Origin: Ignavibacteria bacterium
GTDB taxonomy: Bacteria; Bacteroidota; Ignavibacteria; Tepidaquicellales; OLB5
Reading direction: 5' to 3'
Assembly: GCA_041917655.1 (NCBI GenBank)
Contig: JAYRXC010000024.1
Coordinates: 1,426-65,425, forward strand
Length of the DNA: 64,000 bases
Part shown: piece by piece, positions 35,718-62,408 of the stretch
Layout: each line of letters begins with the position of its first letter
Position numbering within the stretch: position 1 is the stretch's first letter
The notes under the pieces: model-generated
The model's database searches: none
The model's input: only the letters and a program-made list of their open reading frames with translations
Told to the model about the DNA's origin: nothing
Translations under genes and position numbers: made by a program

Positions 35718-35793
35718 TAACAGCGCAACATCACCGTAACAGTGCAACATCACCGTAACAGCGCAACATCACTGTAACAGCGCAACATCACGG
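35718..35793. repeat. Tandem repeat, 19 bp x 4 (taacagYgcaacatcacYg)
   Basis: Units at 35718-35736, 35737-35755, 35756-35774 and 35775-35793, each with at most 2 substitutions, counted directly from the sequence. Confidence 0.9.
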
Positions 35794-49752: not shown

Positions 49753-50655
49753 ATGCTGCTGATACTTACATCTATATTTGCGTACCATAACAGCACGATC
49801 AGATTCTGGTTTGTGTTCTGTGGGATTAATTTGGTTTTGATATGGTTCATCTGGCGGCTGGCTGATTCATACGGAAGAAAAACCGAATCAGTTAAGGATG
49901 AAAATATCAGGAACAGCTCTCCCCTCAAAATACTGCGCTATTGGTACGGTGTAGCAGCGATACTATATATATTCAAGCAAGTGTATATAATCGTATTTTC
50001 GCTTAAGCCTATGGACTGGGATAGTGTATTTATGCGGATGGACTTCGGTTTGTTCGGACTGAATCCGACTCAATGGGCTTACCAGTTCGCAAATCCATAC
50101 CTTACAGAGTTCCTGCAGATCGTTTACCTGTATTATTACCCTATGATAGTTGTGTTCGGGCTGGAATTATATCTCGGGCACAGGTATAAGGAATTCAAAT
50201 ATACCATATTCATTCTGTTCTTCAGCTTCTTCCTCAGCTATATACTCTATCTCTTTTTTCCGGCAAACGGGCCGCGTTTCCACCTGCATGATTTCTACTC
50301 AATAAACTCGGAGCTGCCGGGAATATTTTTAACCGAACATTTGCGGAATTTCATAAACTTCGGGGAGTCAATACCGCCGGGGGTGGTTAACCCGCAGGAC
50401 TATGTACAGCGTGATGCGATGCCAAGCCTGCACACCATCACGGCATTTTTGATAATGTACCTCTCTTTCAAGTTCAGGTCAAAATCATTTTACTTCTACC
50501 TTCCTTATTTTTTCTGCATGGTTGCGGCTACAATATACCTGAGGTATCACTACGTAGTGGATATTTTTGGCGGACTGATAATCTGCGCCTTTACGATAAT
50601 GATGGGCATGCTTGTTTACAGGAACAGGGAAATCCTTACAGTTAAAAATACCTGA
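49753..50655 (+). CDS. PAP2-superfamily membrane protein (lipid phosphatase / phosphotransferase-like)
   Basis: Multi-TM protein with C-terminal PAP2 motifs 'MPSLHT' and 'RYHYVVDIFGG'. Confidence 0.7.
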   Translation: MLLILTSIFAYHNSTIRFWFVFCGINLVLIWFIWRLADSYGRKTESVKDENIRNSSPLKILRYWYGVAAILYIFKQVYIIVFSLKPMDWDSVFMRMDFGLFGLNPTQWAYQFANPYLTEFLQIVYLYYYPMIVVFGLELYLGHRYKEFKYTIFILFFSFFLSYILYLFFPANGPRFHLHDFYSINSELPGIFLTEHLRNFINFGESIPPGVVNPQDYVQRDAMPSLHTITAFLIMYLSFKFRSKSFYFYLPYFFCMVAATIYLRYHYVVDIFGGLIICAFTIMMGMLVYRNREILTVKNT

Positions 50656-51694
50656 AAACTATTTTTTGAGCAACTAGTCCCGGAACCAATGGCTTTGTTC
50701 GTTTAACTACCCCGCTTGTCCCGTCAATTATTACCAAGAATCCGTTACTGTGCCACAATCCCAAATACAGTTCATTTGCGCTTGATTCATAAGCAATAGT
50801 CTGTATATTTTCTACTGAGGCAGCGGTGTATATTTTAGTGAAGACAAAAGTACCTGAATTAGCGGCTGCAAGCCATACTTCATTCCCGCCAACGACCGAA
50901 TAAAAACTGTTCTGTGTTCTAAATTCAAGCACATTGATGCCAAATGATGCTGAAGGTACAGCAAATGAATCAGTTATAGTTACAGTTGGCGGATCTACTC
51001 TGTAAATATTTTTGTTAGTATTTGTCGAAATAAAAATTCCGTTCACATTGTAGATCGCACTCACAGGCACAGCAGGAAAGAACTGCTTTGTTACCGCATA
51101 GTTAGTTTCATCAATAAATGCCGTTGAGGGTTCGTTATTCAGCGCAGATCTTGTTACAATGTACTTGTTGAAACCGTACAATACGTTTGCCGGATTGCTC
51201 CCAACTTCAACCGTATCCTTAATAATATTAAAATCCAGATCGAGCACTGTAATATTCGTACTGCCTGAATTGCCAACAACAATTCTGTTGTTGTTTATCG
51301 CAAATCCTTTTGGGGCATTCCCGAAATATAGTGAATCTTCTATACCATTGCTTACTGGATCAATTTTATAAATTGTTCCGTTACTTCCGGGGTTTCCGCT
51401 GGATGTTAAGTATATTTTTCTGTCTGAATTCAACTTCATATCACCCGGGTTGCCCTGTAGTGTCTTTCCGGAATTAAATGTTCTGAAAACATTATCAGTA
51501 ACCGAATCCCTGGCAGCATCATAATATGCATAATCAGTGAATGCAGGCGCGCCATAAAGTATATAAGCCCCCGCCAATGGATTACCGGCTGAATTATTTA
51601 CTGTCGGCCCCTCTGAATCGCCGCATGCAGCCAGGATAATAGTAAAGCAGAGCATCAGGCTATGCAAAATTGATTTTGTTATGGAGTATTTCAT
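50642..51694 (-). CDS. Beta-propeller (YncE-like) lipoprotein, paralogue of 60854..61945
   Basis: I prefer the ATG at 51694, which gives a lipoprotein signal (MLCFTIILAAC-GDS). Shares 'GTIYKI(D/N)P', 'ITVLD..(F/L)NII.D...VGSNP' and a C-terminal 'K(I/M)(V/A)F(R/K)Y' with the riboswitch-linked paralogue. Confidence 0.75.
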   Translation of the reverse strand: MKYSITKSILHSLMLCFTIILAACGDSEGPTVNNSAGNPLAGAYILYGAPAFTDYAYYDAARDSVTDNVFRTFNSGKTLQGNPGDMKLNSDRKIYLTSSGNPGSNGTIYKIDPVSNGIEDSLYFGNAPKGFAINNNRIVVGNSGSTNITVLDLDFNIIKDTVEVGSNPANVLYGFNKYIVTRSALNNEPSTAFIDETNYAVTKQFFPAVPVSAIYNVNGIFISTNTNKNIYRVDPPTVTITDSFAVPSASFGINVLEFRTQNSFYSVVGGNEVWLAAANSGTFVFTKIYTAASVENIQTIAYESSANELYLGLWHSNGFLVIIDGTSGVVKRTKPLVPGLVAQKIVFRYF

Positions 51695-51753
51695 CTTAAG
51701 GTGTATTAGAATTTTGTATGAGGATTTTTTTTGAATAATGGTTTTCTTTTTTT

Positions 51754-51872
51754 CCGTTTCACGTTTGACGTTTGACATTTCACGTTTGACGTTTGACATT
51801 TCACGTTTGATGTTTGACATTTCACGTTTGACGTTTCACATTTCACGTTTCACATTTCACATTTCACGTTTC
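51754..51872. repeat. Heptamer tandem array (about 17 copies of acRtttS, with the first 9 organised as three 21-bp units)
   Basis: Counted from the sequence: acgtttg acgtttg acatttc, three times (the third unit has atgtttg), then acgtttg acgtttc acatttc acgtttc acatttc acatttc acgtttc. Two further 'ttttgacatttg' copies lie at 51906-51917 and 51920-51931. Confidence 0.9.
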
Positions 51873-51934
51873 ATGCCCGACTTCCGTTTTCTGAAAATTT
51901 GGAAGTTTTGACATTTGGATTTTGACATTTGTCA

Positions 51935-52621
51935 TTAATACTCTATTCCTTTTCTCGCCTGTATGCCTTTATCAAAATAGTGTTTCACTTTCCTGTTCTC
52001 GGTAATCAGGTCAACGCGTTCTTCAAGTCCCTCAAACAGCTTATGACCGGTCATAATAAGCTCGAACCTTCTGTTTTTATCGTACAGGTCGAGAATTTCA
52101 AATACATCCTTTTCTTCTATCAAGTGATAATTTGCTGCGGCAACAAATTCATCAAGCACCAATATATCCTGTTTGCCGTTAACGATGAGATCTCTTACGA
52201 TACCCAGAGCGCGCTTAGCTTCTTCAAAATCCTCTTCTGCGTTTTTGAAGCGGAAAGTGCCGTCTTCATTCATACGCTCGCATCCGCTTGAATATATTTC
52301 AACAGGATAACCTTGTTCTTTAAGCTTAAGAAATATCCGGCGCTCGAAATAATGCTCCTTTGCCTGGTCCTGCCCTTTATCGAACTCCACAATAGCCACG
52401 CTCATCCCGGCGCCTAATGCGCGGAAAGCGAGTCCGACAGCGGCTGTAGTTTTTCCTTTGCCGTAGCCGTAATATAAGTGTGACTGGTGTTTTGCTTCGT
52501 CAGGGAGCTTGTTGTATTCTTCCAGGACCTTTTGAACTTTTTCGCGGTACTTTTTGCCGCCGGCTTTTTTCGCTTCTTCTATAGAAACCTTTTTACCGCC
52601 TGAGAGATTTTTACCGCTCAT
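51935..52621 (-). CDS. cobO: Cob(I)yrinic acid a,c-diamide / cob(I)alamin adenosyltransferase (CobO/BtuR type)
   Basis: 'YYGYGKGKTTAAVGLAFRALGAGMSVAIVEFDKG' P-loop motif, 'LDEF..A' and 'ELIMTG'. A Lys-rich N-terminal extension is present. Confidence 0.9.
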   Translation of the reverse strand: MSGKNLSGGKKVSIEEAKKAGGKKYREKVQKVLEEYNKLPDEAKHQSHLYYGYGKGKTTAAVGLAFRALGAGMSVAIVEFDKGQDQAKEHYFERRIFLKLKEQGYPVEIYSSGCERMNEDGTFRFKNAEEDFEEAKRALGIVRDLIVNGKQDILVLDEFVAAANYHLIEEKDVFEILDLYDKNRRFELIMTGHKLFEGLEERVDLITENRKVKHYFDKGIQARKGIEY

Positions 52622-53140: not shown

Positions 53141-53212
53141 TCCCGCGCAGGCGGGCTTTTGTCAATCCCGCTCAGGCAGCTTTTTGTCATTCCCGCAAAG
53201 GCGGGAATCTCC
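53138..53212. repeat. Three tandem REP-like hairpins, family A variants
   Basis: cattcccgcgcaggcgggc / gtcaatcccgctcaggcagc / gtcattcccgcaaaggcgggaatc, each preceded by 'ttttg'. They lie immediately upstream of the dCMP deaminase start. Confidence 0.7.
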
Positions 53213-53874: not shown

Positions 53875-54066
53875 TTATTCAATAACGGGTTCGAATTCTG
53901 TTCCACCCGTTTTAAGCATCTTCTTTACATAGGGCAGGCATAGCCTGCAGTTTACACCAAATGTAACATACTCTCTAAGCTTATCCGGTGTGCTTACACC
54001 GTGCTTCTCTGCGATCTTCTTCATCTCTGAAAATAATATATCCGAACAAACACATTTTATGACCAT
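53875..54066 (-). CDS. BFD-like [2Fe-2S]-binding domain protein
   Basis: I prefer the ATG at 54066 (MVIKCVCSD...). The Cys pattern C-x-C ... C-x-x-C ('KCVCSD', 'NCRLCLP') is typical of bacterioferritin-associated ferredoxin-like domains. Confidence 0.65.
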   Translation of the reverse strand: MVIKCVCSDILFSEMKKIAEKHGVSTPDKLREYVTFGVNCRLCLPYVKKMLKTGGTEFEPVIE

Positions 54067-54077
54067 TTGCTCCCGAC

Positions 54078-54323
54078 TTATAACTTCCTCAAAAAAACCG
54101 GGCAAAAATCGTAACCATTTGGCCAGGTCACAGAGCCATTATCTAAATATACTTTGTTAAAAAAATCAATATCCCTGAGATCAGCGGAAATTCCTCCATC
54201 AATAAATGGCTTTATATCAATATTCTTAACCATCCCATCATCAAACTGTATATTAATTGAATAGTCCCCTAATGGTTCAACTTTGATGATATCGTGTATG
54301 ATCGATTTCTCTATTGTACTCAT
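54078..54323 (-). CDS. DUF2442-like small protein
   Basis: 81 aa with 'I.FDDG....D......' and a C-terminal 'V.WPNG.D..P' pattern that I recognise as DUF2442. Overlaps the upstream DUF4160-like gene by 4 nt. Confidence 0.7.
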   Translation of the reverse strand: MSTIEKSIIHDIIKVEPLGDYSINIQFDDGMVKNIDIKPFIDGGISADLRDIDFFNKVYLDNGSVTWPNGYDFCPVFLRKL

Positions 54324-54580
54324 ACAAGCGGGTCAATTTTATTTAATATCTTTTTTTCTCTTGCCAAATTCCAATCGGTAATCAGTTCATCCCTGTGTTC
54401 GGTGGCCCATTCAAGTACCAAAGAATAAACTCTTCGTGGAAGCCTTCCCTCTTTAACCTCAAGTGTTTCGATCAAGATCTCAGCCTTATAATCATTGTAT
54501 TCTGCGTGAAAATGCGGTGGAGCATGTTCATTGTAGAACATCTTAATAATTATACCAAGAAATCTGCTTATCTCCGGCAT
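54320..54580 (-). CDS. DUF4160-like small protein
   Basis: 'MPEISRFLGIIIKMFYNEHAPPHFHAEY' is the characteristic DUF4160 N-terminus. Starts 1 nt after the metH stop. Confidence 0.8.
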   Translation of the reverse strand: MPEISRFLGIIIKMFYNEHAPPHFHAEYNDYKAEILIETLEVKEGRLPRRVYSLVLEWATEHRDELITDWNLAREKKILNKIDPLV

Positions 54581-58845: not shown

Positions 58846-58865
58846 TTAATGATATTCTCCTGTAT

Positions 58866-60854
58866 TTAGTATTTAATATTTATTTCTGTTTTGAAATTTC
58901 TAAGCGGCATCGGGTAGCCCGGCAAGACGCTGTAGCTTTCGTTTAATAAGTTGTTGGCTATGAACTTCAGTCCGACTTCAATATCTCCGGCCTGAAAGCC
59001 CAGCCCTATATTTCCGTCAAGGACATCATACCTCGGAATGAATTCCGTATTTTCAAAATTGGTATATCTCCTTGTGGAAAAATTGTAAAACAGGCTAAAA
59101 GATACAAATTTTATAAATTTACTTGTAGTCAAATAATTCAGCATAATTGAAGCTTTTAGCATCTCTTTTGGCAGGTAAATAAGCTGCTTATTGTAAGAAG
59201 GGTCTCCCGGGTAATCTTCGTTTTTCTTCATAGCGCTGCCAAAAGTATAATTTATAGCGGTTTGCGTTGTGAGCTTCTTAGCCAGTGCAAACACCGAGCG
59301 CAGGCTTACATCAATACCTTCGCTTCTTACTTTGCCTACATTTATGGGTTTCCATATTGCTGCCGATTCAGGCGTCCACAAAATGCGGTCTGTTGTATTG
59401 ATATTGTAATAGGATATTTCAAGCTCATGTTCGGCGGCCAGATTTAGCCTGTAATAGATTCCTGCGTCAAAGCTGATGGAGCGCTCAGGCTTCAAATCCG
59501 GATTGCCGATATCCTTCCAGTAAAGCTCGTTGAATGTCGGCGCGCTGAAGTTGTTGCCAAAGGATGATTTGAAATGCAGGTCAGCAGCTGCAAATGGTTT
59601 GATATTCACTCCAAGCTTGCCTGTTACAACATTTTTGGTGTTAATGTTGGAAAAATGGTCATACCGCACGGTTGGGTAGATAGTGAAAACCGGCGAGCCC
59701 TTTCGCAGGAATTCGAATTTCCCCGCCCATAGAGCAGCAGCCTGGAATTGTTTGCCTTCATCGGTCTCATTGCTTGTGATATTACTGAACGATACTTCAG
59801 CGCCTGCATCGAAGCTGTAATTCTTCTCAGGCACAAAGCTGAACACATTTGATGCAGAATAATTATTCAGCCTGTAGAAGCTGTTGATGGGCGAAGAAAA
59901 CCCAAATGTTGCCGGATCAAAGTATTTCTGCAGCGCGTTGCGGTATCCAAGTGTTGACTTCATCGTAAGAACACGAGAGATCCTGCGAAACAGTGAAGCG
60001 CCCGAAAAAATATTTTTATCTATCTGCCTCGCTATTCCCGTAGCATAGCCGATGTCAATCCCGGGTACTCCTCTTTCGAAATGAGTATAGTTAGCAAACA
60101 GTTCCAGCATTACTTTATCACTTTCGGAAAAAGTTAAATCAGCATCGAATGACTGCGTGTTATAGTCAGAGTTTTCCCTGTTCCTCAACACTTTGTTAAC
60201 ACCGCTATTGAGGTAGTAATCAAAATCATTCTTTGCCCTGTTATCCGAAAATGAAATGCTGTAGCCGGCGGTTGAAACTCCTTTCAGCCTGAATCCCTGC
60301 GAGAATCTGCCGAAGAAATTTTTTTGACCGTAAGAACCTAAACCTGCCTTCAATGTGAATCCAAACGGCGCGGCAGGAACATTGGTTTTGGTGATAATAT
60401 TAATTACCCCGCCGATAGCTTCGCTGCCGTAGAGCGCCGATGAACCGCCTTTGGAGATCTCGATGCGTTCAATATTATCCAGATCGTAAAGTGAAAGATC
60501 GACCTGAGCATTCTGGCTGCTGTTAAGCCTGATGCCATTCAGCAGGATAAGCGTATGCTCGCTTTGAGTGGCATTTAGTGATATGGTCTTGGTGCCGGAG
60601 TTAAATCCGTAATCCTTAACATACACTGCGTCACTCAGTTTCAGCGCATCCGGCAGCGAAGTGCCGTTAAGCGATGAAATGAACTCCCCATCCATTACCT
60701 GAATCTTATTTGGCGCGGTAGAGTTTGTCATCTTTACACGGTTTGATTCAACAACTATCTCGCCGGTAACGACGCTATCCATCCTTTGCGAATACAACTC
60801 CCCGCAGAGAACAGCTGCCATGAGAAGAACAAGTATATTGATGTAACATCTCAT
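58866..60854 (-). CDS. TonB-dependent outer-membrane receptor (BtuB-like by riboswitch context)
   Basis: Signal peptide, plug domain ('ISKGGSSALYGSEAIGGVINIITK'), a 22-strand-type barrel, and the C-terminal 'NFKTEINIKY'. The ATG at 60854 overlaps the upstream stop by 1 nt (TGATG). Confidence 0.9.
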   Translation of the reverse strand: MRCYINILVLLMAAVLCGELYSQRMDSVVTGEIVVESNRVKMTNSTAPNKIQVMDGEFISSLNGTSLPDALKLSDAVYVKDYGFNSGTKTISLNATQSEHTLILLNGIRLNSSQNAQVDLSLYDLDNIERIEISKGGSSALYGSEAIGGVINIITKTNVPAAPFGFTLKAGLGSYGQKNFFGRFSQGFRLKGVSTAGYSISFSDNRAKNDFDYYLNSGVNKVLRNRENSDYNTQSFDADLTFSESDKVMLELFANYTHFERGVPGIDIGYATGIARQIDKNIFSGASLFRRISRVLTMKSTLGYRNALQKYFDPATFGFSSPINSFYRLNNYSASNVFSFVPEKNYSFDAGAEVSFSNITSNETDEGKQFQAAALWAGKFEFLRKGSPVFTIYPTVRYDHFSNINTKNVVTGKLGVNIKPFAAADLHFKSSFGNNFSAPTFNELYWKDIGNPDLKPERSISFDAGIYYRLNLAAEHELEISYYNINTTDRILWTPESAAIWKPINVGKVRSEGIDVSLRSVFALAKKLTTQTAINYTFGSAMKKNEDYPGDPSYNKQLIYLPKEMLKASIMLNYLTTSKFIKFVSFSLFYNFSTRRYTNFENTEFIPRYDVLDGNIGLGFQAGDIEVGLKFIANNLLNESYSVLPGYPMPLRNFKTEINIKY

Positions 60855-61945
60855 CAATTATATTTGAACGCCATTTTCTTAGGAAATTTTCCGCCAATAT
60901 CCGGAAAGGTATTCAGCAGGTTTCCGCTCAGATCATACACCCGTACTTCACCATTTGCCGTGCCGCTTTTGGAATTTGCTATATATATTCTGTGATTGAT
61001 CCTGTCGAACGATATTCCGTAAACATCATCTGTGCCGGTGAACTGGATATTGAATGAGGGGTCTATAGTGCGGGTCTGCACATCCACTTTGTAAACCCTT
61101 TTGCCCACATTGGAAGCAAATGATGTATCTGCAACCCCCAAAACCAGCAGAACATGAGAGTCCACAGCGATCATTGAGCCTATAGCAGGCTCGGGTATGG
61201 ACATTGTCATGGAATCGCCTATGGTATTGAACTGCTGGATTATTGAATAGATCTTTTTGCCGGAATAGGTTGAGATGTATATCCTGTTCTCGCCTTCTGT
61301 AACACAAACCGGCGGTGTATCAAAATAGAATTTGTTGACCTGGTAAGTATTTTTATTAACTATTGCGACAGAGTTTTCAAAAGTATAGCTCTGCTTGGCA
61401 ACGTAGAGATAATCGCCGTAAAGAACGATATCAGATGGATTGCTGCCGACCCGGATGGAATCAGCAATTATATTCAGGTTATTATCAAGCACAGTAATAT
61501 GATCACCGGCTGTATTTGTCACATACAGGTTGCCGTTATATTCACCCGCTGCTGAATATGGATTCGTGCCGAAATTGCGCGAAGTTATGAGCTGGTTTGT
61601 TGATGGGTTTATCTTGTAGATCGTACCGGCCTGTCCGTAAGTTCCCTGGGATATGACAAACAGGGTGCTCCCGTTTAGCAGCATCCCGTCTGGTGTTGAG
61701 TTGAGCGCCATACCGCTGTTTGAATTCTGGAACACATTGGCATTCACAGTACCGCTATCAGTATTTATAAATGCATAGTCGTATGAGGTTGGCTGACCGA
61801 ACGAGCCCTCGTAAAGAACGAAAACTCCTTTTGTTGTAGTGACCGGATTATTGTATACAATTTCTTCTTCACCGCAGCCGGTAAAGAAAACAGCAATAAA
61901 AAATGAGGTAATAAAAAACAAAAAAACTGATTTGAACTTTTTCAT
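60854..61945 (-). CDS. Beta-propeller (YncE-like) lipoprotein, first gene of the cobalamin-riboswitch operon
   Basis: Signal ending in Cys (FFIAVFFTGC-GEEE). Repeated 'G..P..I......LYV.N' blade-like segments. Paralogous to 50642..51694. Confidence 0.75.
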   Translation of the reverse strand: MKKFKSVFLFFITSFFIAVFFTGCGEEEIVYNNPVTTTKGVFVLYEGSFGQPTSYDYAFINTDSGTVNANVFQNSNSGMALNSTPDGMLLNGSTLFVISQGTYGQAGTIYKINPSTNQLITSRNFGTNPYSAAGEYNGNLYVTNTAGDHITVLDNNLNIIADSIRVGSNPSDIVLYGDYLYVAKQSYTFENSVAIVNKNTYQVNKFYFDTPPVCVTEGENRIYISTYSGKKIYSIIQQFNTIGDSMTMSIPEPAIGSMIAVDSHVLLVLGVADTSFASNVGKRVYKVDVQTRTIDPSFNIQFTGTDDVYGISFDRINHRIYIANSKSGTANGEVRVYDLSGNLLNTFPDIGGKFPKKMAFKYN

Positions 61946-62030: not shown

Positions 62031-62114
62031 AAATACATGGTCATATAGAGACAGGGAGTCCCAATTTTTTCAGTTAACATGTAATCTTTGCCCTCGAAGA
62101 TCATTACAGAAGAT

Positions 62115-62285
62115 ATTTCCGGCAGGTCTCCTGGCTTAAGAGCAATTAACGGTAAGTCTTCCCATCAATAAAACGATAGTGACGTAACAAATACCGGTCT
62201 TCTCTATTACAGTTGCGGGGACAGCCCAGGATTATTCAGTATTTTGAACAAGCTTCACCTGGTTCCCTATTATTCACCATTTAAG
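62115..62285 (-). promoter_or_regulatory. Cobalamin (B12) riboswitch
   Basis: The reverse complement contains the hallmark elements in the correct order. These are 'AGGGAACCAGGTGAA' (rc of 62254-62268), 'CCTGGGCTGTCCCCGCAACTGTAA' (rc of 62207-62230), 'GTCACT...GATGGGAAGAC', and the B12 box 'AGCCAGGAGACCTGCC' (rc of 62121-62136). Confidence 0.85.
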
Positions 62286-62408
62286 TTAAGTGAACCGAAA
62301 ATAATTCTCCGCTTTAAGCGGAAGTATAACAAAGAGCTGTTTTACAAAAATAGGGAAATTAATGTTAAAGAGAAATGGAGAATATTCAGACCGTAACTTC
62401 TCAAATTT

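Follow-up and report, generated by a model that had tools for sequence, protein, structure and literature searches.

Heptanucleotide repeats of the STRR type were reportedly described in cyanobacteria by Mazel in 1990, and we know of no settled function for any bacterial heptamer array outside Haemophilus. The present work concerns such an array in a stretch of 64,000 nucleotides, hereafter the window, from an Ignavibacteria bacterium (assembly GCA_041917655.1, contig JAYRXC010000024.1, positions 1,426 to 65,425), in which 17 head-to-tail units of GTSAAAY lie in the spacer between cobO, encoding an ATP:corrinoid adenosyltransferase, and a gene for a beta-propeller lipoprotein. With a probability that we put at roughly 0.6, the array would be a heptanucleotide simple-sequence repeat that grew by slippage out of a conserved heptamer-periodic spacer and serves as a neutral or length-tuning leader. 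Long simple-sequence repeats consist of 5-11 nt units in head-to-tail copies well above chance, and heptamers are their over-represented class, for which polymerase slippage was proposed (Mrazek 2007, as reported in PMC4679880 and PMC4692102). The TAACTGA arrays of Beggiatoaceae, Cyanobacteria and Bacteroidetes stand beside start codons of unrelated genes, and binding of S1, Csp or CsrA has been proposed for them (PMC4679880). GGGAATC arrays of Xanthomonas stay beside the same genes, differ widely in length and sequence among close relatives, and sometimes form inverted pairs (PMC4692102), and heptamer arrays near rec genes of Nostoc affect reporter output (bioRxiv 10.1101/2022.06.06.494920). 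The (ATCTTTC)n leader of Haemophilus influenzae hmw, the one well-studied example, takes part in a hairpin cut by RNase III, and expression depends on its length, longer tracts giving lower levels (PMC12721329). The preliminary description of the locus was not aware of a described function for an array like this one at a corrinoid-linked gene; intergenic arrays of heptamers have been described as a class (PMC4679880, PMC4692102), to which the present array belongs. New in the present case are the unit and the lineage that hosts it, together with the 21-bp superstructure and the conserved element beside it.

The likeness to the STRR, TAACTGA and Xanthomonas-Nostoc GGGAATC-GGGGAYT arrays is considerable: all consist of two to dozens of head-to-tail 7-nt units in intergenic positions near start or stop codons, have functionally unrelated neighbours, and keep their location as length and sequence vary; occasional inverted pairs are seen in that class. 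In contrast, GTSAAAY is A-rich rather than G-rich and has no G-quadruplex potential, and it comes with a 21-bp higher-order unit and an adjoining conserved element of proto-heptamers and a hairpin. TAACTGA arrays occur by the hundreds per genome, whereas these 64 kb of an Ignavibacteria metagenome-assembled genome hold only one real GTSAAAY array. The REP and BIME sequences of enterobacteria are intercistronic hairpin repeats, and here too a short hairpin module follows a stop codon and is duplicated two to four times in relatives; unlike them, the module was found at this locus only, in the sequences examined, its 6-bp stem is AT-rich, and it is interleaved with heptamers. With the (ATCTTTC)n repeats of hmw1A and hmw2A (PMC12721329, PMC8262952) the array shares a 7-nt unit 5' of a surface-protein gene and a strain-variable copy number. 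The hmw repeat is transcribed in the leader, as the GTSAAAY array probably is. However, the hmw repeat and a G-rich arm form a long hairpin cut by RNase III, whereas no fold of the present array rises above shuffles; the hmw units are perfect, whereas three variants interleave here; and expression demonstrably depends on copy number in hmw, a dependence that is hypothetical for the GTSAAAY array.

The heptamer array

The spacer measures exactly 240 nt, from the cobO stop codon (51935) to the lipoprotein ATG (51694), and the array occupies positions 51756-51874 of it on the minus (coding) strand, as delimited with Tandem Repeats Finder, pattern counts against shuffles and a table of units. Read from 51874 to 51756, the 17 units are six GTGAAAT, six GTCAAAC, three GTGAAAC, one ATGAAAC and one ATCAAAC. 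Tandem Repeats Finder reports the tract 51751-51873 both at period 7 (17.7 copies, 82% matches, score 141) and at period 21 (5.5 copies, 94% matches, score 195). The window contains 17 matches to a degenerate pattern of three units, always in this spacer, against 0.06 in shuffles; 16 of these matches are overlapping registers inside the array and one falls in the cobO-proximal copies. The two-unit pattern has 17 matches in the window as well, 16 of them in the array, with 0.35 expected. No inverted partner array was found in the window up to 300 nt downstream.

The seven units on the cobO side (51826..51874, minus strand) are mostly GTGAAAT and GTGAAAC, and the unit table places in them three ATG-TGA start-stop mini-open reading frames (ORFs), with ATGs at 51862, 51855 and 51841. 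The nine promoter-proximal heptamers form three 21-bp higher-order units, GTGAAAT-GTCAAAC-(G/A)TCAAAC (51763..51825, minus strand), which are apparent both from the period-21 result and from the unit table; each contains one ATG in frame with the lipoprotein (51820, 51799 and 51778) and reads MSN(I/V)KRE. An A-rich, non-repeat leader of 61 nt (51695..51755, minus strand) separates the array from the lipoprotein start and ends in ACACCTTAAG before the ATG. As in a heptanucleotide simple-sequence repeat, the tandem copies exceed chance, the position is intergenic, as fixed by the N-termini of lipoprotein homologues, and the tract is polymorphic among close relatives. The preliminary description had reported about 17 heptamers with 21-bp super-units filling a 240-bp gap, three near-identical 21-bp units built from nine copies, two extra 'ttttgacatttg' copies near cobO, MSNVKRE-type ATGs in frame with the lipoprotein and ATG-TGA mini-ORFs in the distal units, and on all these points our measurements agree with it.

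Variation and constraint in the spacer

Genomes and metagenomes yielded orthologous spacers between cobO and the lipoprotein gene, close lipoprotein alleles being reached solely through cluster members, and the comparisons of length are between strains and species, as represented in assemblies. A metagenome scan with the lipoprotein returned five loci only, so that the sample of copy numbers is small. Exact-protein look-ups of the 350- and 392-residue forms of the lipoprotein and of P0053 matched no record, and a homologue search for copy-number variants with the 57-residue antisense ORF that spans the array found none.

The eight spacers measured are 34, 53, 60, 72, 188, 240, 272 and 274 nt long, and a ninth (L010-L012) is about 116 nt according to gene coordinates. 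Six of the eight spacers tested show significant autocorrelation at lag 7 (p <= 0.013). Among them are the 53- and 60-nt spacers from relatives whose proteins are only 62-65% identical (TGTCAAA TTTCAAA TGAYAAA and so on), and since periodicity extends this far, a heptamer-periodic spacer beginning at the cobO stop codon is ancestral. The number of units ranges from 3 to more than 17 across the orthologous spacers, and the expectation of the preliminary description that copy number would differ among relatives, when checked across genomes and metagenomes, is thus borne out between strains and species.

Among strains whose mature lipoproteins are 99.7-100% identical there are at least three spacer alleles (window/L009, L016 and L013-15), which differ in unit order. 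In L016, with 99.7% identity to the window, the array ends in GTCAAAC-(GTGAAAC)3 and not in (GTCAAAC)2-GTGAAAC, and in L013-15, with 100% identity, it is followed by a second hairpin and ACCAAAT heptamers. Since L016 and L013-15 also differ in signal-peptide codons, the alleles seem to have been shaped by recombination between diverged alleles as well as by slippage. Compared with positions 51600-51694 of the window (minus strand), L013 and L016 show more than 10 differences in the 40 nt that encode the signal peptide, in addition to those in the spacer, and the three become identical from the lipobox cysteine onward. In these alignments the lipoprotein allele is a mosaic, with a putative recombination breakpoint at the border between signal peptide and mature protein. 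A short imperfect array of about seven units is identical in seven assemblies of a lineage at 89% identity (L008, L141-146), which is expected if slippage depends on near-perfect units. Conservation within the spacer is lowest in the expanded array, which is hypervariable among close strains and adjoins a constrained element.

That element consists of the 34 nt that adjoin the cobO stop codon, TGACAAATGTCAAAATCCAAATGTCAAAACTTCC, which comprise four proto-heptamers (TGACAAA TGTCAAA ATCCAAA TGTCAAA; 51907..51934, minus strand), beginning immediately downstream of the stop codon, and the 5' arm of a 6-bp hairpin. This part of the spacer is conserved: the 34 nt of L008, L010 and L137 match those of the window at 97-100% identity, in the same comparisons in which the third-codon positions of cobO show 60-69% identity, and on these grounds we regard the element as being under purifying selection; presumably it carries the function of the spacer. 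The hairpin, ACTTCC-N15-GGAAGT(C) (51879..51906, minus strand), is unique in the window, where 0.01 is expected, and appears in the predicted centroid fold. Its loop is 7 nt long in relatives, which have one to four modules; in the closer ones the module has 29 nt, AAAACTTCC-AGAAAGC-GGAAGT-CAGGCGT, interleaved with GTSAAAC heptamers, with one copy in L010, two in L008 and four in L137. The stem variant of L147, ACTTTC/GAAAGT, amounts to a single compensatory pair. Two copies of the core ATGTCAAA lie in the conserved proximal segment and four in the array, and ACACCTTAAGATGAAATA in the 61-nt leader is invariant across five aligned relatives.

A structured RNA or DNA was considered and ruled out: the array folds no better than shuffles (z of 0.23-0.24 for RNA and 0.94 for DNA), and no Rfam family was found in the spacer, the best match scoring 19.6 bits against a gathering score of 50. 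At consensus thresholds there is neither a sigma-70-like promoter nor an intrinsic terminator in the spacer, including the interval from the end of the array to the lipoprotein start codon, 61 nt downstream, and the TTGACA hexamers on its plus strand have no usable -10 element. The lipoprotein start is not preceded by a Shine-Dalgarno sequence; a neighbouring gene has AGGAG. Given a spacer with no promoter or terminator, and spacers of just 34-72 nt in distant relatives, cotranscription with cobO would be the simplest assumption.

Expansion and alternative explanations

A scan for (GTSAAAY)3 in one genome per species returned at least 119 stretches (L017-L135), spanning Chloroflexota, Ignavibacteria, Bacteroidota, Desulfococcaceae, Parabeggiatoa, Nitrospirota, Verrucomicrobiota and others; about 17 chance matches are estimated at uniform base composition. 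In other Ignavibacteria the same family of arrays (GTGAAAT, GTCAAAC) follows the stop codons of genes for an M12 peptidase, a TonB receptor, a rhodanese, an M3 peptidase, DinB and DnaB. Among the matches listed (796 kb), to which the further counts of this paragraph refer, arrays reach 41 units, with GTGAAAC mixed with GTGATGC, GTGATAC, GTGAGAT and GTCAAAC. Period 7 accounts for 429 of the 1099 rows from Tandem Repeats Finder, periods 6 and 8 for 35 and 93, and because period 7 dominates with dozens of unrelated units, the phenomenon appears general to heptamers and not specific to GTSAAAY. Three to five contigs each come from Thermoflexales SLSP01, Desulfococcaceae HSG8, Chloroflexaceae Prado088 and MFD03726.bin.2.170. 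An inverted partner lies within 300 nt downstream of 41 of 132 arrays (31%) and upstream of only 3, with a background of 6 in 270 segments. The order of such pairs is always (GTGAAAC)n ... (GTTTCAC)n, with a median gap of 36 nt and a median z of -6.6 for the predicted hairpins, and on both strands they have an A-rich 5' arm and a U-rich 3' arm, in the manner of a bidirectional terminator. Arrays with sense-strand stops in all three frames begin at a median of 9-16 nt from the upstream stop codon (about 50% of them within 10 nt), and for open-frame arrays the median distance is 48-106 nt. Twelve arrays supply the stop codon of the gene with a TGA of their own. These distances in L017-L135 come from crude ORF calls, the six Ignavibacteria cases being confirmed with Pfam.

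We infer that the array of the window expanded by slippage and unequal recombination and that it is transcribed as a leader, with a neutral or length-tuning effect. The ancestral spacer was built of a few NNNCAAA heptamers starting at the cobO stop codon, whose units replication slippage and unequal recombination between heptamers would then have amplified in this lineage, at the 7-bp level first and most recently at the 21-bp level (three GTGAAAT-GTCAAAC-GTCAAAC units). Transcribed with cobO, the expanded tract would form an unstructured, A-rich leader of variable length, which may be nearly neutral or may act as a heritable tuner of the amount of lipoprotein. Some points weigh against this account. 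Members of the GTGAAAT/GTCAAAC family also appear directly behind the stop codons of unrelated genes in other Ignavibacteria; the ATGTCAAA core lies in the conserved proximal segment; and two assemblies 2 nt apart share all 17 units. Since purely neutral slippage predicts neither the recurrence after stop codons nor the conserved core, there is room for a sequence-specific partner, and since the window and L009 agree in all 17 units, the array is stable enough for some genomes to be alike. Whichever effect the tract may have, the locus offers a compact natural series, one gene pair with spacers of 34 to 274 nt made of the same heptamer and hairpin modules, and the conserved proximal element beside a hypervariable tract makes it a convenient site for testing whether heptamer arrays tune expression or are neutral.

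It is possible, if unlikely, that the array is a contingency locus of the phase or 'rheostat' type, modelled on the (ATCTTTC)n upstream of Haemophilus influenzae hmw1A, in which frequent gain and loss of units would alter the 5' leader or the promoter distance and so switch or grade lipoprotein expression. Such a locus would fit the different arrays in strains with near-identical proteins and the position of the array directly 5' of a gene for a surface lipoprotein, a gene type typical of contingency loci, and there is a precedent in the hmw heptamers, which are transcribed in the 5' untranslated region and lower expression as they lengthen (PMC12721329). However, the imperfect units (82% matches at period 7) would lower slippage rates, and the differences between alleles include the hairpin module and signal-peptide codons, which looks like recombination rather than the gain or loss of one unit; moreover, the array forms no hairpin of the hmw type, and arrays of the same kind follow housekeeping genes such as dnaB. 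If, as a separate possibility, the repeat were coding, translation would start at an array ATG, the product would have an N-terminal extension of MSNVKRE repeats, and the number of heptamers would set the reading frame on or off, as pentamer repeats in the leader peptides of Neisseria opa set the frame; this we consider very improbable. The three in-frame ATGs do stand in an A-rich context, and gene callers gave extended products in P0001, P0004, P0010, P0052, P0061, P0062 and P0064. Yet about 37 of 49 homologues begin at, or a few residues from, a canonical short N-terminal lipoprotein signal peptide, and the closest (P0005-P0009) begin at MKY (51694), which argues that the array is non-coding and that the 392-residue ORF including it is an over-extension. 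The N-terminal extensions called in a few relatives are unrelated in sequence and have no peptide in common; the signal peptide would lie 42 residues from the N-terminus; and in-frame ATGs further upstream (51928 and 51874) run into a TGA within the array. Long open frames on the sense strand carry no weight, because that strand is T-poor and open frames are to be expected. The in-frame MSNVKRE reading of the preliminary description therefore yields to a gene start at MKY, its suggestion that heptamer number shifts the frame loses its basis in an array that is not coding, and a 392-residue gene call with MSNVKRE repeats should be treated with caution in annotation. Hardly credible is a mis-assembly of the repeat number or of the entire tract from short reads. 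Short-read contigs from at least seven samples, assembled at k=31, do break on both sides of the spacer, but a second assembly (GCA_964577125.1, L009), whose reads are not necessarily independent, differs by 2 nt in 7179 and has an identical array; independent contigs from other samples begin within equivalent arrays, relatives assembled with other pipelines have homologous arrays, and the unit variants render most long k-mers unique.

Tandem sites for a sequence-specific factor, either a DNA regulator on 21-bp-phased sites or a binder of single-stranded RNA whose footprint is 7 nt, are quite unlikely to be the explanation. In the RNA form, a cold-shock protein or ribosomal protein S1 would coat the leader and control translation of a gene that has no Shine-Dalgarno sequence. 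The presence of the ATGTCAAA core in both the conserved segment and the array agrees with this, as do the missing Shine-Dalgarno sequence and the placement of GTSAAAY arrays at -1 to +10 nt after stop codons in all six Pfam-checked loci of other Ignavibacteria; moreover, binding of S1, Csp or CsrA has been proposed for TAACTGA arrays, with the remark that one CspB protein binds per heptamer (MacGregor, PMC4679880). On the other hand, the expanded tract is the least conserved in the spacer, its unit number varies from 3 to more than 17 and its order depends on the strain, no regulator gene adjoins the locus in the window, dozens of unrelated heptamer units coexist in array-rich genomes, and composition-matched heptamers form arrays about as often as GTGAAAC. 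The preliminary description had likened the array to iterons or regulator-binding sites on the sole argument that 21 bp are two helical turns; this phasing is uninformative, because 21 is three times 7 and is the arithmetic consequence of a higher-order repeat of three heptamer variants. Iterons and operator arrays are represented by plasmid iterons, the P1 parS box A heptamers ATTTCAC, the chromosomal parS half-site GTTTCAC and the CtsR heptad operator. The array resembles them as a set of short direct repeats with 21 bp near two helical turns, and departs from them in that unit number and order differ between strains and species, the gene annotation of the window places no cognate, regulator or replication gene beside it, and the 7-bp spacing sets successive sites on different faces of the helix. 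A related reading, which we find decidedly doubtful, takes GTSAAAY arrays not as slippage debris but as a polar cis element placed after stop codons across several phyla, the array of the window being an expanded solitary member that tunes the next cistron. Convergent inverted pairs would then form terminator-like or processing hairpins, and solitary arrays would be unstructured, 7-nt-periodic tracts recognized by a binder of single-stranded RNA that covers 7 nt and sets the expression of the next cistron; if this were true, copy number in the window would tune a second B12-scavenging lipoprotein.

Resemblances to known binding sites were also considered. GTGAAAC is the complement of the chromosomal parS half-site, and GTGAAAT that of P1 box A. 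The array holds only direct repeats of one parS half-site, with no box A plus box B architecture, and the 16-bp parS palindrome TGTTNCACGTGAAACA has no match in the window at up to 3 mismatches. Viral contigs contain 15 stretches with (GTGAAAC)3; three composition-matched heptamers give 2, 7 and 26, and TAACTGA gives 107. With no full parS in the window and no enrichment of GTGAAAC over composition-matched heptamers, a parS/ParB box A was rejected and the resemblance taken as coincidence. Resemblances to CtsR, PhoB and CRP half-sites were dropped because the spacing was wrong or the match inexact.

With regard to the assemblies, seven short-read contigs from seven samples (L001-L007), all with identical CobO, end 27 nt past the stop codon. 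Their last 31-mer starts at the wobble position of the last cobO codon, which reads TAT in the window and TAC in L008 and L147. If k is 31 in these short-read assemblies, as we assume, the common end suggests co-occurring strains that differ at the wobble base and share the next 30 nt; alternatively, there may be a branch after GTCAA. Under either explanation the break lies outside the array.

Gene neighbourhood and other repeats

On the minus strand the gene order is cobalamin riboswitch, DUF5074 lipoprotein, TonB-dependent receptor, DUF6580 protein, metH, small genes, AAA_18 protein, dCMP deaminase, cobO, spacer and lipoprotein, this lipoprotein being the last gene of the cluster. The cobO gene (51935..52621, minus strand) was identified with Pfam PF02572 (E 8.6e-45) and NCBIfam cobA models. 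The YncE/DUF5074-like beta-propeller lipoprotein gene (50642..51694, minus strand) encodes 350 residues, with the start MKY taken from homologue N-termini and the lipobox LAAC; it has weak YncE-type beta-propeller matches only, and shows 30% identity (E 9e-34) to the riboswitch-controlled DUF5074 paralogue (60854-61945). The cobalamin riboswitch (62104-62314, minus strand) is the sole Rfam match in the window. The preliminary description had linked the array to corrinoid genes; in other Ignavibacteria, GTSAAAY arrays stand behind genes for peptidases, a TonB receptor, a rhodanese, DinB and DnaB, and the array of the window, as far as its sequence goes, provides no evidence of a corrinoid-specific regulatory mechanism.

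Between metH and the AAA_18, dCMP-deaminase and cobO genes there is a pair of small DUF4160/DUF2442 genes with a BFD-like [2Fe-2S] ORF (53875-54580, minus strand), in an order that is kept in relatives. A small TAAATAC duplication at the junction between the TonB-receptor stop and the DUF6580 start (58862-58882, minus strand) is followed by an AGGAG Shine-Dalgarno sequence. Directly 5' of the dCMP-deaminase start lies a 25-bp tandem repeat of 2.6 copies (53141-53205, minus strand), made of three GC-rich hairpins (TTCCCGC-cttt-GCGGGAA and similar) linked by TGACAAAA(A)G, in which the logic of a TGWCAAAA plus hairpin module is the same as in the cobO-lipoprotein spacer. At positions 35718-35791 there is an intergenic 19-bp tandem repeat, TAACAGCGCAACATCACCG, with 3.9 copies and 94% matches.

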